From the IMG/VR virus record IMGVR_UViG_3300010398_000005, positions 1 to 46,275 of that record: 46,275 nucleotides of DNA. One strand, given 5' to 3'. How positions within the stretch are numbered: position 1 is the stretch's first letter; each line of letters opens with the position of its first letter. Both the position numbers and the translations under genes were made by a program. This DNA is from a virus. Taxonomy: Duplodnaviria; Caudoviricetes. Shown here in pieces: positions 6,935 to 16,827 of this stretch. The notes under the pieces are model-generated. The model was not told where the DNA came from. It searched no databases and worked only from the letters and a program-made list of their open reading frames with translations.

Positions 6935-7221
6935 ACATGCCCACATGCCATTTTCGTATTCCATACTGCGGTGTGCGGGATGCTTTCACATGTCCCACAT
7001 GCCATAGAATTGAGAAGGATCTTTAACATTACCCCCCCGAATGTCCAGGGCACGCTGTTTGCGGTCAGTCGGCAAGTCCGACTGGTCCTGTACAAACCAG
7101 TATCGCGTACAGCGCGCGTACTAGCACATACAAGCTGCACGACGCAATAGGCCATTCGTACTGCTGTATGTGGCATGTGCATGCCACTATGTGGCATGTG
7201 AACTGCTGTATGTGGCATGTG
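6935..7221. repeat. Iteron-like repeats in an AT-richer intergenic region (candidate replication origin or packaging site)
   Basis: TATGTGGCATGTG at 7167, 7188 and 7209 (21-bp period); inverted core CACATGCCA at 6942 and 6996. Confidence 0.65.
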
Positions 7222-7299
7222 ACCTAGCCTCATACAAGCCTCGACTCTCGCGCGTCGTACAGTGCGACGAACCAAAATCGGTCTTGACCAAAAAAGTTG

Positions 7300-7328
7300 T
7301 TGACAAGCGTTTGCTGCCCGGTCATACT
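7300..7328 (+). promoter_or_regulatory. Sigma70-type early promoter
   Basis: TTGACA-17 bp-CATACT; overlapped by operator-like TGTTGACAAGCGTTTGCT (7298-7315). Confidence 0.8.
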
Positions 7329-7334
7329 CGTCTC

Positions 7335-7576
7335 ATCGGCCGGACGGAACCGGCCGGGACGGAGGGTCAGGACTCCTCCGGGACCGGAAGTCAATACCGA
7401 CAGTGCATACGGGTGAGTCGAGTAGGATTCAGTTCCTGGCGCGGGTTCCAACCCCACGTCCCGACGCTACCTCCCTGATGGCCGCACAGTCCGCCCGGTG
7501 GCCGGCGCCGCGGTACAGACAAGAGATGATTGCCCCAGCACGATAGAACCTCCCTGTTCCCCGCGGTTCTAGCTGT
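7335..7576 (+). ncRNA. Structured leader / putative ribozyme-released ncRNA with two anti-SD segments
   Basis: Lies between the promoter and the first twister site; hairpins at 7337-7356, 7360-7380 and 7544-7571; TACCTCCCTG (7468) and GATAGAACCTCCCTGT (7542). Confidence 0.5.
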
Positions 7577-7630
7577 AAGGCGCCTGCAAGTGCAGCCAGT
7601 TGCAAGCCTGGATACAAGCCCGAGCACAGC
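7572..7630 (+). ncRNA. Twister ribozyme, P1 type (predicted cleavage 7576|7577)
   Basis: P1 GCTG/CAGC, U|AA, imperfect P2 GGC/GCC, P3 TGCA/TGCA, P4 CCAG/CTGG with loop TTGCAAGC, T1 TGC with GAGCA. Confidence 0.65.
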
Positions 7631-7650
7631 ACTTACAGGGAGGTACGGCA

Positions 7651-7932
7651 ATGCTCAGTCTGTACAAACTCGCCGATGGCACGTTCAACACGAGCGCGGA
7701 CGGTTCCGGTTCGACATGGGCCGACGTCGAATACAGCGACCCGCAATACTCCGAGATCGAGTACGGCGATGACCTGTGCTGCGAGTGCGACGAACCGATC
7801 GAACTCAGCGGCAAGCACTTCCTGAACATGGACGGCGGTAACGAGTTCGCCCATGTCGAGTGCGTCATGGTCCACGGCACGTCGTACAGCGCAGGTCGCT
7901 TCGGCGTCGCGTGCGGTTGGTCGCTCGCTTGA
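7651..7932 (+). CDS. Small Zn-binding protein (93 aa)
   Basis: GGAGG RBS; CxxC...HxxC; acidic. Confidence 0.75.
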   Translation: MLSLYKLADGTFNTSADGSGSTWADVEYSDPQYSEIEYGDDLCCECDEPIELSGKHFLNMDGGNEFAHVECVMVHGTSYSAGRFGVACGWSLA

Positions 7933-7933
7933 A

Positions 7934-7993
7934 CGCGGAGGACAGCGGTTCGTACAACCGCTGTAACGCGGCAGCACGGTTCCAAGCCCGTGC
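7934..7993 (+). ncRNA. Twister ribozyme, permuted P5 type (cleavage 7964|7965)
   Basis: CGCG-GAGGA-[CAGCGGTT..AACCGCTG]-T|AA-CGCG-GC-A-GCACGG-TTCCAAGC-CCGTGC. Confidence 0.85.
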
Positions 7994-8018
7994 AATCTGG
8001 CCGCAGTGAGGTTCTACG

Positions 8019-8444
8019 ATGGCGACACTGGCAAGCATCGTGCACGCTGGCAAGGGTGTGGCTGGTCCCTGGGCTATTGTGCCCGGTGAAGACCCGGCCC
8101 GACCTGGTACGGATGTGCTGGCGTTGCGCCACTACAGCACGATCATGCTGGCGTGGGTCCCGGCCGAGGACAACCGAATCATCTACCTGTCCACCGGTCA
8201 CGGCAGCGTCAGCGACCAGAACGGCGTCAACAAGGCCCTGCGCGTGTTGGGCGGCTGGTACAACCCGTCCAATGGCTGGAATGGCCCTGTGCCCGGCACC
8301 CCGGGTCCAGCAATGTACTTCAGCCGGGCGGGCGGCTCGACATACCACGTGTTGGACGAGCGGTACAGCCTCGTTCCCATCCGCGGCGGCCTCAGCTCAG
8401 CATACGAGCTGTTGCGCCGCGAGCGAGACAGCGCGGAGGACTGA
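8019..8444 (+). CDS. Hypothetical early protein (141 aa)
   Basis: GAGGTTCTAC RBS, flanked by ribozymes. Confidence 0.8.
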   Translation: MATLASIVHAGKGVAGPWAIVPGEDPARPGTDVLALRHYSTIMLAWVPAEDNRIIYLSTGHGSVSDQNGVNKALRVLGGWYNPSNGWNGPVPGTPGPAMYFSRAGGSTYHVLDERYSLVPIRGGLSSAYELLRRERDSAED

Positions 8445-8488
8445 GGCTCACGCCTCAGTAACGCGGCAGCCCGGTTCCAAGCCCGGGC
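8432..8488 (+). ncRNA. Twister ribozyme, permuted P5 type (cleavage 8459|8460)
   Basis: CGCG-GAGGA-[CTGAGGC..GCCTCAG]-T|AA-CGCG-GC-A-GCCCGG-TTCCAAGC-CCGGGC; overlaps the upstream stop codon. Confidence 0.85.
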
Positions 8489-8514
8489 AATCGAGCCACG
8501 TTGGAGGTTCCCCA

Positions 8515-8787
8515 ATGGACGACGTCACGCGAGAGCGCGCACTGGACGCCATGGTCATGCGCAGACTGCGCACCGACCGCCGGTACCTGAACGCCGAGAA
8601 CGCGGACGAGCAGGCCGAGGCCGAAGAGGTCATTACGGCCGAGTGCGAAGCCGAACTCGACGCGGCCGAATCGAGACGGCGAGCCCTCGGTCGGCTGATC
8701 GAAGCTCGCGCGATGCTGCGGCGATGCCGCAAGGGCGATCTCGTCGCGTTCCAGTCCGCCTGGGCGGCTGTGGACGCTGCATCCTGA
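8515..8787 (+). CDS. Hypothetical helical protein (90 aa)
   Basis: GGAGGTTC RBS, ATG 8515 (MDDVTRERAL...). Confidence 0.75.
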   Translation: MDDVTRERALDAMVMRRLRTDRRYLNAENADEQAEAEEVITAECEAELDAAESRRRALGRLIEARAMLRRCRKGDLVAFQSAWAAVDAAS

Positions 8788-8788
8788 G

Positions 8789-8849
8789 CGCGGAGAGCGG
8801 CTGGCCCGACGGCCAGTCGTAACGCGGCAGCACGGTCTCAAGCCCGTGC
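8789..8849 (+). ncRNA. Twister ribozyme, permuted P5 type (cleavage 8820|8821)
   Basis: CGCG-GAGAG-[CGGCTGGCC..GGCCAGTCG]-T|AA-CGCG-GC-A-GCACGG-TCTCAAGC-CCGTGC; T1 covaries (GAG/CTC). Confidence 0.85.
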
Positions 8850-8876
8850 AAATCAAGCCACGTTGGAGGTTCTGTC

Positions 8877-9950
8877 ATGGAGCTGTTCAAGGCGCACAAG
8901 CAGTGGGCGACCCGGCCGGCGGACGAGAGGTTCGACAGCCTCAAGGCCCTGTACGAGGCCACTCACGCGTACGCGCAGACCTCGACCGAGCGGTCCGTGC
9001 CGTGGGGCGACCTGCGCACCCGGCCGGACGGCGACCAGGTCCAGCTCGTGGGCAAGGCCGGCACCCCGGCGCTGCTCACGCACTTCAGCTTCGGTCAGCT
9101 CGCGAACCGGATCGGCGCCCCCGCGGAGTACCTGCGGGCGCTGCCGCCGTCGCTCGCCTGCGACAACCTGAACCACGGGCTGGCCACACGCTCGTTCAGC
9201 GCGGACGGCCGCGACGCCAAGCTCTTGTTCCACGTCAACGGCAATCTGCTCTGCCGCGCGCTCACGACGACCATGTACGAGCGCGTGTGGAACCACGAGA
9301 TCGCCGAGCGGCTGCTGGAGTGGGGGACCCGGGGCTGGGCGCCCGCGCGCCCGACCATGCGGCAGATCGACGGCACGCTGCCGCTCTACGCGTCGGACCA
9401 CGACATGTTCGTGTTCCTGTGCCACAACGACCTCGCCATCGCCGAGCCCGGCCAGGAGGGCGGGCTGTACCGCGGCGTCATCGTGGAGAACAGCGAGGTC
9501 GGCGCCGGTTCGCTGAAGCTCACCCGGTTCCTGTACCGGGAGATGTGCGGCAACCACATCATCTGGGGCGCCAGCAACGTCATGGACCTGAGCCTGCGCC
9601 ACGTGGGCTCGATCCGCAACCGCCTGTACACGTGGACGATCGCGCTTCGCGAGTACCAGAACTCGGGCACCGACAAGGACCAGATGATGGTCTCGCGCGC
9701 CATGTCCACCACCATCGCCGACACCAAGGAGGGCGTCCTCGACAAGCTGTTCGGCGTGCGCTCGCTCAACCTGAGCCGGCGCACCATCGAGGCGTCGTAC
9801 GACGCGGTCGTGATCGACCAGGACGGCAGCCCGAACACCGCGTGGGGCATGGCCCAGGGCATCACGCGCCACAGTCAGACGCTCCCGTTTGCCGACAAGC
9901 GGACTGAGCTGGACCGCGCGGCCGGCAAGCTCCTGGAGTTCGCGTTCTAG
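8877..9950 (+). CDS. DUF932-family protein
   Basis: LYASDHDMFVFL, NSEVGAGSL, CGNHIIWG motifs; 357 aa. Confidence 0.75.
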   Translation: MELFKAHKQWATRPADERFDSLKALYEATHAYAQTSTERSVPWGDLRTRPDGDQVQLVGKAGTPALLTHFSFGQLANRIGAPAEYLRALPPSLACDNLNHGLATRSFSADGRDAKLLFHVNGNLLCRALTTTMYERVWNHEIAERLLEWGTRGWAPARPTMRQIDGTLPLYASDHDMFVFLCHNDLAIAEPGQEGGLYRGVIVENSEVGAGSLKLTRFLYREMCGNHIIWGASNVMDLSLRHVGSIRNRLYTWTIALREYQNSGTDKDQMMVSRAMSTTIADTKEGVLDKLFGVRSLNLSRRTIEASYDAVVIDQDGSPNTAWGMAQGITRHSQTLPFADKRTELDRAAGKLLEFAF

Positions 9951-10004
9951 TAGGAGGGCAGCCCGCAAGGGCTGTAACTACCCTGTACGGTCCCAAGGCC
10001 GTAC
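9950..10004 (+). ncRNA. Twister ribozyme, permuted P5 type (cleavage 9975|9976)
   Basis: GTAG-GAGGG-[CAGCCC GCAA GGGCTG]-T|AA-CTAC-CC-T-GTACGG-TCCCAAGG-CCGTAC; P2, T1 and T2 all covary. Confidence 0.88.
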
Positions 10005-10030
10005 GCCACCATGACAGGAGGTTCTATCAG

Positions 10031-10243
10031 GTGAGTACGATCATCATCACGGGCGGCAAGATCGAGGTCAACGAGGCAGTGCGGGCGCTGCTGACTGGCC
10101 ACGCGTCGCGGTTCACCATCGAGAAGGTGGAGGACGGGCCGCGCAGCGGTTGGACCGCAGAGGAGGCCGGCGAGCACAACGTCATGCCACTGGCTCACGG
10201 TGAGCGCCAGGCGACGCTCGCGTACTCGGCCGAGCGACTGTGA
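10031..10243 (+). CDS. Hypothetical protein (70 aa)
   Basis: GGAGGTTCTATC RBS, GTG start. Confidence 0.7.
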   Translation: MSTIIITGGKIEVNEAVRALLTGHASRFTIEKVEDGPRSGWTAEEAGEHNVMPLAHGERQATLAYSAERL

Positions 10244-10614
10244 GCAGCGACACGCGCGAGCGACCCGTCAGTGGCAGCGTCGAAGCCAACCCCCTCGACG
10301 TGGACATTCACGATCCTGGCAACGTGCTCGATGCTGTCGGCCAGGTCGTGACCTACCGCTCGGACATCGACGGCGCTGTGGTGGTCGAGATCGAGACCGG
10401 TGCCGGCATCGGCCGGCTGCGCGTGTACGTCAACGATGGCCCGATCTTCGACCAAAAATCCGAGGAGCCCGGACCCCACGGCACGTGCGGCTTCGTCTGG
10501 AGAGAGAACGACATCAGCCCGGCCACCGAGGGGCACCACCGCTGCACCCTGCGCAGCGGCCACCGCTCGGTCCAGCACTACTGCTCGACATGCGGCGCGG
10601 AGTACCGCTCCTAG
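10240..10614 (+). CDS. Hypothetical protein with C-terminal Cys/His cluster (124 aa)
   Basis: GTGA overlap; C..HxC....H...HxCxxC. Confidence 0.7.
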   Translation: MSSDTRERPVSGSVEANPLDVDIHDPGNVLDAVGQVVTYRSDIDGAVVVEIETGAGIGRLRVYVNDGPIFDQKSEEPGPHGTCGFVWRENDISPATEGHHRCTLRSGHRSVQHYCSTCGAEYRS

Positions 10615-10659
10615 CCGCTACACTTCGCACGTACCAGCGAGCGGCCACCACTACCCCCC

Positions 10660-10696
10660 AAGGCCCCAGTTCTCCCCCCGGGAGGCTGGGGCCTTC
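10660..10696 (+). terminator. Putative intrinsic terminator
   Basis: AGGCCCCAG...CTGGGGCCTT stem in the intergenic gap. Confidence 0.55.
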
Positions 10697-10712
10697 TCGC
10701 ACCTGGTAGAAC

Positions 10713-10735
10713 TGTTGACGATCGTTTGCTACACT
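10713..10735 (+). promoter_or_regulatory. Extended -10 promoter with operator-like motif
   Basis: TGcTACACT about 9 nt before ATG 10745; TGTTGACGATCGTTTGCT matches 7298-7315 at 16/18. Confidence 0.6.
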
Positions 10736-10744
10736 GACGCGGTC

Positions 10745-11005
10745 ATGCCCCGCGAGAAGCTGGTGACCGTGTCCGAGCTGGCCCGTCAACTCGGGCCTGA
10801 CTGGACGCGGCCGCTGGTGTGGTACTGGCTGCACCAGACCGAGATCGAGGTCGAGCGCCTGCCCAACGGCTGGGGCGTCGTCGAGGTCTCTCGCGTCTCG
10901 GAGGTGCTGTTCAGGCTCCGAGCTGCGCGGGCAGCTCGTCGCCACGACGGCCACGGAGGAGGCGAGGCCCGCGCTCGCCGCATTCATCAGGGAGGTGTCT
11001 ATTGA
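10745..11005 (+). CDS. Helix-turn-helix DNA-binding protein (MerR/Xis-like)
   Basis: LVTVSELARQLG...VWYWL...ERLPNGW pattern; 86 aa. Confidence 0.7.
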   Translation: MPREKLVTVSELARQLGPDWTRPLVWYWLHQTEIEVERLPNGWGVVEVSRVSEVLFRLRAARAARRHDGHGGGEARARRIHQGGVY

Positions 11006-11007
11006 CC

Positions 11008-11517
11008 ATGCTGGACGACTTCAGGCCCACCGCGCCCGAGCTTCACGCGGCGGAGCGGCTGGCCGAGGTGTGGACCGAGGCCGAGGCCGCGTACGAGCGC
11101 GGCCGCGCCGACCTGGAGGGCGACGGAGACTGCCAGGTCGGGACCCGCTCCGAGCTGGACCTGGCCACCGAGTTCCTGGGCGACCACCAGGTGGTGGAGG
11201 CCCTGCTGCGGGGCGAGCGCCCGCTCATCACGTACTCGGTGCTGGCCATGCCGGACGGGCAGACGCGCGCCATGTTCACCGGGCACACGACCGAGGGCGA
11301 GGAGCTGCGGTTCGCCCACTGCATGCTGCTGGACATGATCCGGCGGCAGCTCGACCGCGTCGAGGGCGAGGGCGAGGCGGCGCGGCTGCTGTTCGTCATG
11401 GCGGCCACGGCCACCGACGTGACCACCACCCGGCGCGAGGACGGCACCGAGATCGAGACCGTGGACTTCCGCGAGCAGCCCGGACGAGGGCGGCGCCAGC
11501 GCTCCGGACGACGATGA
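11008..11517 (+). CDS. Hypothetical protein (169 aa)
   Basis: GGGAGG RBS, GC3-rich codons. Confidence 0.75.
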   Translation: MLDDFRPTAPELHAAERLAEVWTEAEAAYERGRADLEGDGDCQVGTRSELDLATEFLGDHQVVEALLRGERPLITYSVLAMPDGQTRAMFTGHTTEGEELRFAHCMLLDMIRRQLDRVEGEGEAARLLFVMAATATDVTTTRREDGTEIETVDFREQPGRGRRQRSGRR

Positions 11518-12101
11518 CGACGACGAGTAGGCGGGCGCTCCTCGCTCTGTTCGTCGTCGCCGGCCTGGCCTGCGGCTCGGCGGCTCGCGTGGCCCATCAG
11601 GGTGACGTGGCGCCCGCCAGCCCGGCCTCGCCGGCTCCGTACACCCCGGCGCCCAGCGCGACGCCGTCAGCGGCGCCCACGGCCGCCGTACAGCCGCTCC
11701 GGCCGCCCACCAACCCGCCCGTCCAGGCGCCGGCGAAGGTCGTGACCTTCATCGCCAACCGGCTCCAGGGTCCCGGGCTCGACGTGGCGATCGGCGCCAA
11801 CGTCACCGGGTCCTGCGCCGTCAACCGCACCCTGGCCCCGGGCTCCGCGCACGTGGACCCCTGCGAGCCGGGGCTGTGGTTCGACTGCCACGTCGGCACG
11901 TGCCCCGCGATGAACTCGTGGGGCGTCGGCGCGGCCGTGACCTGGTGGGACGGCGGCGGCATCCCGCACACGTATCACGTGACGGGCGTCTCTGTTGTGC
12001 CCATCGACAACCAGCCGCACCAGGTGGCCGGCGGCCCGGTCCACTTCCAGGTCTGCACCAGTCTGGCGGGCGCTAGCGCCCGCGTACTGGCGGCGGCGTG
12101 A
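11514..12101 (+). CDS. Sortase-like lipoprotein
   Basis: Signal peptide with lipobox LAC, Pro/Ala linker, RLQGPGLDV..H..YHVTGVSVV..FQVC..R resembling the sortase His-Cys-Arg layout. Confidence 0.55.
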   Translation: MTTTSRRALLALFVVAGLACGSAARVAHQGDVAPASPASPAPYTPAPSATPSAAPTAAVQPLRPPTNPPVQAPAKVVTFIANRLQGPGLDVAIGANVTGSCAVNRTLAPGSAHVDPCEPGLWFDCHVGTCPAMNSWGVGAAVTWWDGGGIPHTYHVTGVSVVPIDNQPHQVAGGPVHFQVCTSLAGASARVLAAA

Positions 12102-12214
12102 GCGGGGGCAACGGCAAGGACAAGGACAAGCCGAACCCCGAGCCCAAGAAGCCGCCCGAGCCCACGCCACCGCCCGCCGACCCCAACAAGGGCAAGCGAG
12201 CGAACGGCTACTGA
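12098..12214 (+). CDS. Pro/Lys-rich micro-protein (38 aa)
   Basis: GTGA overlap; MSGGNGKDKDKPNPEPKKPPEP... Confidence 0.55.
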   Translation: MSGGNGKDKDKPNPEPKKPPEPTPPPADPNKGKRANGY

Positions 12215-12272
12215 GCGGAGGACAGGGGCCGCGCCCCTGTAACGCGCCAGCGCCCCGTTCCAAGTCGGGGGC
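12215..12272 (+). ncRNA. Twister ribozyme, permuted P5 type (cleavage 12240|12241)
   Basis: GCG-GAGGA-[CAGGGGC..GCCCCTG]-T|AA-CGC-GC..CCCCG-TTCCAAGT-CGGGG. Confidence 0.8.
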
Positions 12273-12298
12273 ACGCGTTGCCAATGAAAGGAGGTTCT

Positions 12299-12436
12299 AT
12301 GGCAGGCAAGAACGGCAGCAAGGGGCCATGCCCGAGCAGTGACAACGGCCAGCACAATTGGGCCAAGGTCACCAATGCCAATGCCAAGGGCGAGGCGACG
12401 GGCGAGGTGTGCTCGTACTGCGGAGCCACACGATGA
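12299..12436 (+). CDS. Zn-binding micro-protein (45 aa)
   Basis: AAGGAGG RBS; C..HNW..CSYC; ATGA overlap with the next gene. Confidence 0.7.
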   Translation: MAGKNGSKGPCPSSDNGQHNWAKVTNANAKGEATGEVCSYCGATR

Positions 12437-13011
12437 AGCTGGACGAGCTGCAAGAGGGCCAGGAGTACGCGATCAGGCGCAACCGGATCAAGGACGCGAG
12501 CTGGACGACGCCGTGTCGGGCGCGGCTGTCGCAGATCGTGACCACGCGGTCTCGTCGCACCAACCGCCAGGAGCGCCTGTGTCTGTTCACGCTGTTGGAG
12601 GATGCCGAGTGGATCATCGATGGCGATCCCCAGCGCGCTGGGACCTCGATCACCATCGAGGCTCGATTCGTGTGGCGGACCTGGGCACTCCAGGCCCAGC
12701 TCAACGAGCAGAAGCGGCTCATCGAGCAGGCGCGTGAGGCCAACACCGCGACCATGCGGCGCGTGCTCGGCCAGCTCGGGCTCCACGACGAGCGCTACGT
12801 GCGCACCAATGCGGACCCGGCGCAGTACGACGTCACGGTCTCCGTCGCCGAGCTGGAGAAGCTGGCTGTCGCGGTGGTCGAGATCGAGCGGCTGCTGTAC
12901 GGCTGGTTTGTGGAGGCCACGCAATACGAGTACCGGCTACAAGATCAGCCGGCCGACCGGGCGCTCTACCTGTGGTGCGCTAACCACGACTTCAGCAACG
13001 TCACGGGGTGA
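12433..13011 (+). CDS. Hypothetical protein (192 aa)
   Basis: MKLDELQEGQEY..., coupled to both neighbours. Confidence 0.75.
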   Translation: MKLDELQEGQEYAIRRNRIKDASWTTPCRARLSQIVTTRSRRTNRQERLCLFTLLEDAEWIIDGDPQRAGTSITIEARFVWRTWALQAQLNEQKRLIEQAREANTATMRRVLGQLGLHDERYVRTNADPAQYDVTVSVAELEKLAVAVVEIERLLYGWFVEATQYEYRLQDQPADRALYLWCANHDFSNVTG

Positions 13012-13520
13012 GCGGTCTCACCCTGCGCCACCCCACCATGCGCGAGCTGCACAGGCTCGCGCTGGACCGGGGCTGGCGCGTCGAGCAGCACGGCGCCGAG
13101 CTGCATTGGTTCAATCCGGACAAGACCGTGAACATGGTCGTCACCCCGATGAGCCCAGGCGACCACGACCGCGGGCTCGCCAATTCAGTCGCCCAGCTCC
13201 GACGCGTGGGGCTGGACATACCACGGAGGCGAGGCATGCCGGAGAGCCCGGAGCAGCTACCAGCCCAGCAGCCAGCGGCTGAGCTGGACCCGTTCGTGCG
13301 CAGCCTGGCCGACCTCATCGAGGAGGAGCTGGCCCGGCGCACAGCCAACCTGGAGAGCCAGGTGCAGGAGCTGGAGGATCGCGCGACAGCGCTGGCCAAC
13401 GACAACGCCGACCTGCGGCAGAAGCTCAAGGACTGCGACGAGGGTATCGAGCAGCGAGCCGAGCAGGCAGCGCTGGCCGCTGTCCGCGAGATGCTGGCGC
13501 AGCGACGCGTCCCTCGATAG
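13008..13520 (+). CDS. HicA-like N-terminal domain plus coiled coil
   Basis: GWRVE..WFNPD..VVTPMSPGD..N..AQLRRVG resembles actinophage HicA-like proteins. Confidence 0.5.
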   Translation: MSGLTLRHPTMRELHRLALDRGWRVEQHGAELHWFNPDKTVNMVVTPMSPGDHDRGLANSVAQLRRVGLDIPRRRGMPESPEQLPAQQPAAELDPFVRSLADLIEEELARRTANLESQVQELEDRATALANDNADLRQKLKDCDEGIEQRAEQAALAAVREMLAQRRVPR

Positions 13521-13578
13521 TGGGAGGGCAGCGGGCCGGTGCCCGCTGTAACCACGCGGTATGGTCCCAAGCCCGTAC
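13520..13578 (+). ncRNA. Twister ribozyme, permuted P5 type (cleavage 13549|13550)
   Basis: GTGG-GAGGG-[CAGCGGGC..GCCCGCTG]-T|AA-CCAC-GC-G-GTATGG-TCCCAAGC-CCGTAC. Confidence 0.88.
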
Positions 13579-13604: not shown

Positions 13605-14549
13605 GTGACCCTGATCGCCTACGAGCATAAGCAGTTCTCGCGGGCGTCCGAGGCGAAGATCGAGCAGGCCAACGCGATCATCGCCGAGTACCAGGCCCAG
13701 GGCTTCAGCCTGACGCTCAGGCAGCTCTACTACCAGCACGTGGCCAGGGGGCTGATCCCCAACACGTTGCAGTCGTACAAGTCCCTCGGCAACCTCATCA
13801 ACGACGCGCGCATGGCCGGGCGCGTCTCCTGGACCGCGATCGAGGACCGGACCCGGTTCCTGCGGGCGCTGTCGAGCTGGAACAGCCCCGAGGACGTGGT
13901 TCAGGCAGCCGCGGACGACTACCACGAGAACTGGTGGCGCGACCAGCCGGTCCACTCCGAGGTGTGGATCGAGAAGGACGCGCTGGTGGGCGTGTTCGAG
14001 GGCGTGTGCAACGACCTCGACGTGCCCCTGTTCTCGTGCCGCGGGTACGCCTCGGCGTCCGAGGTGTGGCTGGCCGGCATGCGGCTCCAGCGCAAGATCC
14101 GCAGCGGCAAGCGGGTGGTGATCTTCCACTTCGGGGACCACGACCCGTCCGGCCTCGACATGACTCGCGACATCACCGACCGGCTCATCACGTTCATCAG
14201 CCACCACGCGAGGGTCGCGTACCCCGATCGCTTCAACGTCGAGCGGGTGGCGCTGACCATGGATCAGGTCAACCAGTACGGGCCGCCGCCCAACCCGGCC
14301 AAGACCACCGACTCTCGCTTCGAGGACTACCAGCGCGAGTACGGCGACGACTCCTGGGAGCTGGACGCGCTGGAGCCCCAGGTGCTGGCCGATCTGGTAC
14401 GGTCGTCCATCGAGGGCGTGGTGGACAGCGACCTGATGGAGGCGGCGCAGGAGGAGGAGCGCAAGGCGAAGCGACTGCTCGCGCTCGCGGCCACCAACTG
14501 GTACGACGTCGCCGAGTACCTGCGCGACAACCACGGCGACGACGAGTGA
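13605..14549 (+). CDS. Spo11/Topo VI-A-like winged-helix + TOPRIM protein
   Basis: TLRQLYYQ, WIEKDAL, RGYAS, GDHDPSG, ELDAL. Confidence 0.8.
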   Translation: MTLIAYEHKQFSRASEAKIEQANAIIAEYQAQGFSLTLRQLYYQHVARGLIPNTLQSYKSLGNLINDARMAGRVSWTAIEDRTRFLRALSSWNSPEDVVQAAADDYHENWWRDQPVHSEVWIEKDALVGVFEGVCNDLDVPLFSCRGYASASEVWLAGMRLQRKIRSGKRVVIFHFGDHDPSGLDMTRDITDRLITFISHHARVAYPDRFNVERVALTMDQVNQYGPPPNPAKTTDSRFEDYQREYGDDSWELDALEPQVLADLVRSSIEGVVDSDLMEAAQEEERKAKRLLALAATNWYDVAEYLRDNHGDDE

Positions 14550-16475: not shown

Positions 16476-16801
16476 TGTACCACCTGCGACGTGCGCTGTA
16501 CGGCGACGGCTGGGAGGAGCGGGCGGACGGCATCGTGGTCCCGCCGGGCTCGATGTATCCGGACCGCGTCGTCTTCCGCAACGTCAGCATGGGGGTCTGC
16601 TGGCGCCCCGGGTGCGAGCGCACGGACACCCACTTCGAGCTGCGCATGAGCAGCGGCCCGGAGATCTGGTGCTCGGAGCACGGGTCGCCGGTGTTCAACC
16701 GACTGGACCTGACCGCGATCCGCGGCATCCAGAACGAGGAGCCGGAGCCGAGGCCGGCGAGCCAGGAGCCTCCAGCCTGGTACAAGCTGCTGGAGGGCTA
16801 G
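16475..16801 (+). CDS. Hypothetical protein with Cys/His motif (108 aa)
   Basis: CWRPGC...CSEH; TGATG coupling. Confidence 0.7.
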   Translation: MYHLRRALYGDGWEERADGIVVPPGSMYPDRVVFRNVSMGVCWRPGCERTDTHFELRMSSGPEIWCSEHGSPVFNRLDLTAIRGIQNEEPEPRPASQEPPAWYKLLEG

Positions 16802-16827
16802 CAGACGAGCGTCTGCTGTGCTAGTAT
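16800..16827 (+). promoter_or_regulatory. Palindromic operator plus extended -10 promoter
   Basis: AGCAGACG-AG-CGTCTGCT followed by TGcTAGTAT; 5' UTR hairpin at 16829-16860. Confidence 0.65.

Follow-up and report, generated by a model that had tools for sequence, protein, structure and literature searches.

Twister ribozyme sequences at the gene gaps of a phage early region and their possible part in transcript processing

Twister elements and genes of the early region

We analyzed the 46,275-base IMG/VR record IMGVR_UViG_3300010398_000005 (Duplodnaviria; Caudoviricetes), referred to here at its full length as the window, which is classed as a complete virus record, has terminal repeats and carries genes for a terminase, a portal, a major capsid protein, an endolysin, a primase and a helicase. 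Its early region holds seven twister ribozyme sequences in 6 kb of genome, most of them lying at gaps between early genes (Table 1). The gene calls are our own, and those of 38 and 45 aa are unverified.

An initial annotation, made from the letters alone, had proposed seven twister elements, and the Rfam twister models match all seven (six of type P5, one of type P1). When the whole window was searched at the curated cut-offs, five Twister-P5 matches (RF02684; cut-off 37.6 bits) and no other family were returned, while the P5 copy at 8789 and the P1 copy at 7572 (RF03160; cut-off 67.2 bits) were obtained at a looser threshold and score below those cut-offs. A structural descriptor demanding P1, P2, P4, both pseudoknots, the U-A-A and the G-A parses all six P5 copies, with every stem and both pseudoknots paired, and places the U-A cuts at exactly the bonds named before. 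It gave six matches on the plus strand of the window, none on the minus strand and none in 100 dinucleotide shuffles. The pairing layout that the copies had been said to share holds in all six, the one at 12215 departing from it in the lengths and letters of P2 and T2 (Table 1). A covariance model built from the copies found no extra P5 copy in the window, the next scores being at most 14 bits compared with 47-98 for the training copies. The claim of a seventh, unpermuted copy at 7572-7630 also stands, with a twister-P1 match under the cut-off and the U-A at the expected bond; as read from the sequence, its P2 has three pairs plus one extra C. The U-A-A and the G-A are present in all seven window copies.

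The twister class (RF02684, RF03160) has been reviewed together with its chemistry, including how the adenine that follows the scissile bond and the active-site guanine act (PMC5408937). The window copies have its stems P1, P2 and P4, its pseudoknots T1 and T2, the U-A site and the active-site G, and differ only in the two scores under the curated cut-offs. Judged by sequence, the elements are twister ribozyme sequences, and the twister core itself offers nothing new. It is highly probable that most of the copies cut; in a high-throughput assay ~94% of the natural twisters tested, all types taken together, did so, and imperfect P1 and P2 stems did not prevent it (PMC11662667).

Table 1. Features of the early region, in order of position in the window
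Feature	Position	Strand	Basis and remarks
Sigma-70-type promoter-like site, TTGACA-17-CATACT	7300..7328	+	10/12 matches; similar site in three relatives
Conserved structured leader RNA, multi-stem with two-hairpin junction	7403..7541	+	consensus fold of four genomes; no Rfam family
P0-like hairpin (7544-7550 with 7565-7571); 5' arm and loop form anti-Shine-Dalgarno motif 7542-7557	7542..7571	+	conservation of a 14-nt motif; alternative folds computed
Twister type P1 with P3 hairpin	7572..7630	+	predicted cut between 7576 and 7577; RF03160 36.3 bits, E 6.5e-5, below cut-off 67.2
Ribosome-binding site of gene 1	7635..7644	+	complementary over 10 nt to 7548-7557
Gene 1, 93 aa, variable between relatives	7651..7932	+	no PHROGs, Pfam or NCBIfam match; found in 1/3 relatives
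Twister type P5	7934..7991	+	predicted cut between 7964 and 7965; 50.2 bits; descriptor
Gene 2, 141 aa, no assigned function	8019..8444	+	stop codon inside P1 of next ribozyme; in 0/3 relatives' early regions
Twister type P5	8432..8486	+	predicted cut between 8459 and 8460; 55.4 bits; descriptor
Gene 3, 90 aa, no assigned function	8515..8787	+	found in 1/3 relatives
Twister type P5	8789..8847	+	predicted cut between 8820 and 8821; 30.4 bits, E 0.004, below cut-off; descriptor
DUF932-like gene, 357 aa	8877..9950	+	phrog_1362 E 2e-27; PF06067 E 0.0014, below its cut-off
Twister type P5	9950..10002	+	predicted cut between 9975 and 9976; 41.8 bits; descriptor
Two overlapping genes (70, 124 aa), no ribozyme between	10031..10614	+	gene calls
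Strong terminator-like hairpin	10660..10695	+	~-30 kcal/mol in 4/4 genomes; U tails in G002 and L166
Second promoter-like site, extended -10 at 10727-10735	10716..10735	+	read from sequence; promoter scan did not find it
Four overlapping or abutting genes (86, 169, 195, 38 aa), no ribozyme between	10745..12214	+	gene calls
Twister type P5, 3-bp P2, T2 GC/GU	12215..12269	+	predicted cut between 12240 and 12241; 40.9 bits; descriptor
Three overlapping genes (45, 192, 170 aa)	12299..13520	+	gene calls
Twister type P5	13520..13576	+	predicted cut between 13549 and 13550; 44.4 bits; descriptor
Topoisomerase-like gene, 314 aa, first after the last ribozyme	13605..14549	+	phrog_6247 E 3e-113

Conservation and covariation in related phages

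The search for relatives yielded three phage records, of which G001 and G002 have ~83-84% identity to the window over 35-38 kb and L166 has 78% over 15 kb. Helicase and capsid scans of viral contigs gave no relatives beyond G001 and G002, a primase scan of metagenomes gave L166 and the window's own record, and scans with leader patterns gave G001 alone as a relative; four bacterial-genome and five other viral pattern matches had no Rfam match and no leader homology past the pattern. A search among 50,697 phage records returned no match, save one at E 0.9. We also considered a host assignment from the endolysin and rejected it as too weak, since its best matches, in actinobacterial phages, cover half the protein at 33-43% identity.

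The same layout, which the initial annotation had proposed looking for in related phages, recurs in each of the three, with five P5 copies in G001, eight in G002 and six in L166, all within the early region. In the resulting set of 25 copies from four genomes, some of which are orthologous, 97.4% of cells are paired, a value reached by none of 500 shuffles (a test that ignores kinship) and compared with 30-42% in slid controls. Two-sided changes occur at 15 of the 19 pairs, both pseudoknots included; the P1, P2 and P4 stems have 96.9-99.3% of cells paired, T1 has 97.3% and T2 has 90.0%, where some of the misses are copies with a 3-bp P2 displaced by one column in the MAFFT alignment. The U-A-A site does not vary, nor is the G before T1 lost in any of the 23 copies that the descriptor parsed. 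The fold is kept in all six window copies even though their cores are just 56-81% identical to each other. On the minus strand of L166, near 5020-4965, a P5 copy truncated by a break in L4 is directly joined to a complete one.

The P1-type copy is present also in G002 and L166. Its G002 orthologue scores 46.2 bits, with letters of P2, P3 and P4 that differ but still pair; the L166 copy is not independent, as its sequence is nearly the same as that of the window. The corresponding slot of G001 (locus L001, 2319-2395) holds a twister-shaped fold in which P1-P4 and both pseudoknots are complementary, but G replaces the second A after the cut site, U replaces the active-site G and L4 begins with G, and the element has no Rfam match. 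Changes of this kind lower or abolish twister cleavage (PMC11662667), and by its sequence the element would be either an inactive copy retained for its structure or a new variant of the core. Looking for further members of this variant, we found that none of 122 loci (from a scan of 7 of the 64 parts of the collection) and one of 60, G001 itself, passed the structural filter.

Placement between genes and the fate of the transcript

Between 7651 and 14549 there are 13 gene junctions, and a P5 copy is found at six of the seven that do not overlap and at none of the six that overlap or abut, which gives predicted pieces of one to four genes. Four of them, of 388, 495, 361 and 1155 nt, carry a single gene, and the others are blocks of two to four overlapping genes; the earlier description of gene-sized units therefore fits those four pieces and not the rest. 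The six P5 elements had also been called intergenic, which needs correction for the copy at 8432, as it is partly coding and contains the upstream stop codon in its P1 stem. The end of the upstream stop codon falls between 3 nt before the ribozyme and 22 nt inside it, always ahead of the cut, in 23 of the 24 copies parsed (the exception is the copy that follows the truncated P5 in L166), so that no piece would lose its stop codon. A start codon was parsed for 22 of 23 copies and lies 23-45 nt past P4.

We consider it probable that the twisters (six P5, one P1) at the early-gene gaps cut transcripts into mRNAs of one gene or one overlapping block. After a cut at the U-A, the upstream piece would end with its stop codon, the G+C-rich P1 hairpin and a 2',3'-cyclic phosphate, since the P5 permutation closes P1 as a hairpin and leaves that piece with a stable hairpin end, and the downstream piece would open on a 5'-OH followed by the P4 hairpin and a standard ribosome-binding site. 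Every swappable early gene would in this way be given uniform protected ends and a uniform translation start, whatever gene precedes it. Cleavage, its occurrence in the cell and this benefit we infer from the observed sequence, fold, conservation and position.

The genes between the ribozymes vary among the relatives while the ribozymes persist: early genes 1, 2, 3, 5, 9, 10 and 11 (7 of 14) are each found in at most one of the three relatives' early regions. Such turnover would also suit modules of ribozyme and ribosome-binding site serving mainly as homology islands for gene shuffling, with cleavage as a side effect or insulator. The linker sequence common to copies in different slots fits this alternative, as does the fusion near 5020-4965 in L166, which is what unequal recombination between cassettes would be expected to produce. 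Recombination needs identity, however, and the cores share only 56-81% of it, as given above; they vary by compensatory changes that preserve the RNA fold, and all copies lie on the transcribed strand. We consider homology islands as the main role to be unlikely.

The predicted ends bear on a second alternative, that the pieces are substrates for circularization, with the 5'-OH and cyclic phosphate joined by host RtcB or by a re-formed ribozyme. RtcB ligates exactly such ends (PMC8782182), and the half-ribozymes of the piece 7965-8459 have matching P2 and T1. The phage encodes no RtcB, though, and P2 or T1 is mismatched across the ends of the next three pieces; moreover, a twister 3' fragment was a poor ligation substrate (PMC8782182), and prophage hammerhead arrays gave no detectable circular or spliced product (PMC3088659). 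We consider circularization to be very unlikely.

Several points weigh against processing into translated mRNAs. Cleavage of glmS lowers expression and decay follows (PMC6765202), and expression in Escherichia coli was unchanged when an engineered 5' UTR (untranslated region) was cut by a twister (PMC5052635). Ribosomes terminating at overlapping stop codons could hinder ribozyme folding. The first slot of G001 is without the catalytic G, and the P5 copy at 121-175 of locus L002 (G002) has a T1 pseudoknot mismatch, yet scores 59.2 bits. Finally, no P5-model match was found at 29 more distant loci with a DUF932-like gene (31-58% protein identity), 12 of which were also scanned with Rfam, so the DUF932-like gene does not need a ribozyme. 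The glmS precedent, in which decay follows cleavage, would also allow the cuts to destabilize early mRNA as a built-in timer. This seems quite unlikely, given that with the P5 permutation both new ends would carry a hairpin and that a strong ribosome-binding site lies after each cut, features that fit pieces meant for translation.

In 5 of 24 copies (including window 8432-8459, L001 2853, L032 327-383 and L002 121) the upstream frame enters the ribozyme by 13-22 nt and stops in P1. A ribosome terminating there would cover the active-site G, and cleavage may therefore be sensitive to translation.

The early mRNA of phage T7 is cut between genes by host RNase III, a protein enzyme that leaves 5'-phosphate ends, whereas self-cleavage and 5'-OH ends are predicted here. 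A closer precedent is that of Perreault et al. 2011, who described prophages in which single genes or short blocks are flanked by multiple hammerheads and proposed that long phage transcripts are processed to operon- or gene-length mRNAs; three triple hammerhead arrays cut in vitro, and one did in E. coli (PMC3088659). The two cases share several clustered ribozymes flanking single genes or short variable blocks, and they differ in the ribozyme class and in number, with three per array tested there and 6-9 twister copies per genome here. According to a 2019 review, twisters occur in the same contexts as hammerheads with a purpose that is undefined (PMC6765202), with which PMC6155905, PMC8782182 and PMC5737381 agree. 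The initial annotation knew of no characterized seven-copy, gene-delimiting array in a phage; novelty in that form is not supported, since the same role was proposed in 2011 for hammerhead arrays and twisters were placed in the same contexts by the review. The locus is, by sequence, a set of twister ribozymes in an already described kind of arrangement and not a new kind.

The early transcript is predicted to start at the promoter-like site 7300-7328. A single operon had been proposed, but the conserved hairpin at 10660-10695 and the promoter-like sequence at 10727-10735, which together occupy the seventh, ribozyme-free non-overlapping gap, point to two transcription units; this suggests a terminator and second promoter between them, although the hairpin of the window has no clear U tract and is absent from the terminator-scan list. 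One shared box overlaps three promoter-like sites (7301-7316, 10716-10730 and 16798-16815), and its copy at 16798 is a perfect 18-bp palindrome. The box is likely an operator, perhaps for the product of the 86-aa gene at 10745, a conserved gene without a family match. Short direct repeats at 7160-7225, upstream of the early promoter and present in G002 and L166 too, lie between the divergent primase gene and the early operon and are possible origin or regulator sites. In G001, a reading frame of Gly/Tyr/Ser/Asp-rich repeats (L001 6913-7203) that is absent from the window lies just 5' of the last ribozyme.

The leader RNA and the ribosome-binding site of gene 1

The stretch between the 7300-7328 promoter-like site and the first twister is conserved in all four genomes. 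The consensus fold of the leader has 47 pairs, 7 with two-sided changes, and none of 500 shuffles reached as high, a result that is favored by deriving the structure from the same four sequences; the leader of the window alone, with a folding z-score of +0.81, is no more stable than its shuffles. Except for the twister, Rfam gave no match to the leader at E<=10. We rejected a tRNA or tmRNA, as there is no Rfam match and ARAGORN found no tRNA or tmRNA gene in the leader or anywhere else in the window, and likewise an HDV-like ribozyme, as Rfam gives no match and the short pseudoknot required is not kept in G002. The two-hairpin junction at 7420-7462 has a 7-nt loop with U second that, read as an anticodon, would be CCA here and CUA in G002; it has no T-arm or acceptor end. 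A second anti-Shine-Dalgarno motif, at 7467-7476, was set aside as structural because it has a pairing partner within the leader, where G002 shows a compensatory change, though in the folds it may be an alternative partner of the gene 1 site in L166.

The first twister would set the 3' end of this structured RNA. Theta ribozymes of gut phages, which are reportedly self-cleaving with an HDV-like fold, likewise adjoin phage non-coding RNAs; they are said to adjoin tRNAs, of which ARAGORN finds none in the window.

Directly before the first twister, the 14-nt motif 7542-7555 is identical in all four genomes and the adjoining loop varies. It lies in a P0-like hairpin, a kind found in ~10% of twisters and associated with lower cleavage on average (PMC11662667). 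The motif is the reverse complement of a GAGGUUCU(A) site, and GAGGTTC (RNA GAGGUUC), to which it is complementary, follows 22 of the 25 P5 copies. A minus-strand small gene behind the antisense 'ribosome-binding site' at 7553 was considered and dropped, as all five codon differences to G001 alter the amino acid.

To transcript processing by the twisters we tentatively add a leader switch, in which the anti-Shine-Dalgarno motif would mask the gene 1 site around the first twister until the cut between 7576 and 7577 frees it. The leader would then refold into its own hairpin, exposing the gene 1 site, and a structured RNA of ~240 nt would be released that could later pair in trans with the GAGGUUCU sites of the ribozyme-released mRNAs, GAGGUUCUA being the matching site in the proposed pairing, and so dampen early translation. 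In this reading, a natural ribozyme-run translation circuit, with the first twister unmasking the gene 1 site and freeing a leader antisense to the GAGGUUCU site that nearly all ribozyme-released early mRNAs carry, might act as a protein-free timer for the early genes, which we regard as possible but doubtful.

The unchanged motif beside a variable loop is consistent with such a switch. In all four genomes the local uncut fold pairs the motif with the gene 1 site, and opening the site is predicted to cost 13.4, 8.5, 5.8 and 19.4 kcal/mol uncut compared with 3.5, 4.5, 1.6 and 3.2 kcal/mol cut; at one position of the helix two genomes have G-C, G002 has A-U and G001 has G-U. Against motif shuffles, however, the cost of opening is distinctive for the window and for L166 (0/200 each), weakly in G001 (10/200) and not in G002 (172/200), and covariation in the 10-bp helix is not significant (reached by 246 of 500 shuffles), which is why we hold the switch only tentatively. 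When the whole leader is folded, the L166 site pairs elsewhere than with this motif, and the cut halves are still predicted to stay associated, at -8 to -21 kcal/mol. The G001 first element, without its catalytic G, keeps the pairing, so that gene 1 would be locked off there. All these folds ignored pseudoknots and come from four genomes that are 78-84% identical.

As to pairing in trans, TCT or TCC follows GAGGT at 18 of 22 parsed ribozyme-led sites, compared with 11 of 98 other GGAGGT sites; the script missed 3 of the 25 ribozyme-led sites, and the 98-site control contains these and the leader's own antisense. With similar contexts collapsed, the TC is kept in 10 of 12 while the linker upstream is variable, and six of the seven best plus-strand targets of the motif in the window are early ribosome-binding sites. 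Five of the six ribozyme-led sites in the window are predicted to bind the leader hairpin with a net -11 to -19 kcal/mol and the sixth with -3, energies that are partly circular, as the targets were picked by the motif. C/U-rich stretches in general pair with Shine-Dalgarno sites, and common descent of the cassettes would be a simpler reading of the shared spacer.

Engineered twisters that mask such a site do function in E. coli (PMC5052635). In the switches of Felletti et al. 2016, an anti-Shine-Dalgarno/Shine-Dalgarno helix closes around the ribozyme and the cut frees the site, as is predicted here; those are artificial, and the P1 design had low output, whereas in the phage a competing hairpin could, by prediction, pull the anti-Shine-Dalgarno strand away. 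The shared ribosome-binding-site motif and the anti-Shine-Dalgarno leader are features that we did not meet in the excerpts of PMC3088659, and in the open-licence literature we found no seven-copy phage twister array and no natural anti-Shine-Dalgarno twister.

The role that self-cleaving ribozymes have in bacteria and phages is unsettled (PMC6765202), and this phage group offers a compact test case, with 6-9 copies per genome, a clear placement rule and short host-free constructs. Natural variants are at hand in the T1 mismatch, the truncated copy and the copy that lacks the catalytic G. Should the leader switch be real, it would be a natural version of a design found in open-licence print solely as an engineered device, and it would give bacterial twisters a regulatory role.

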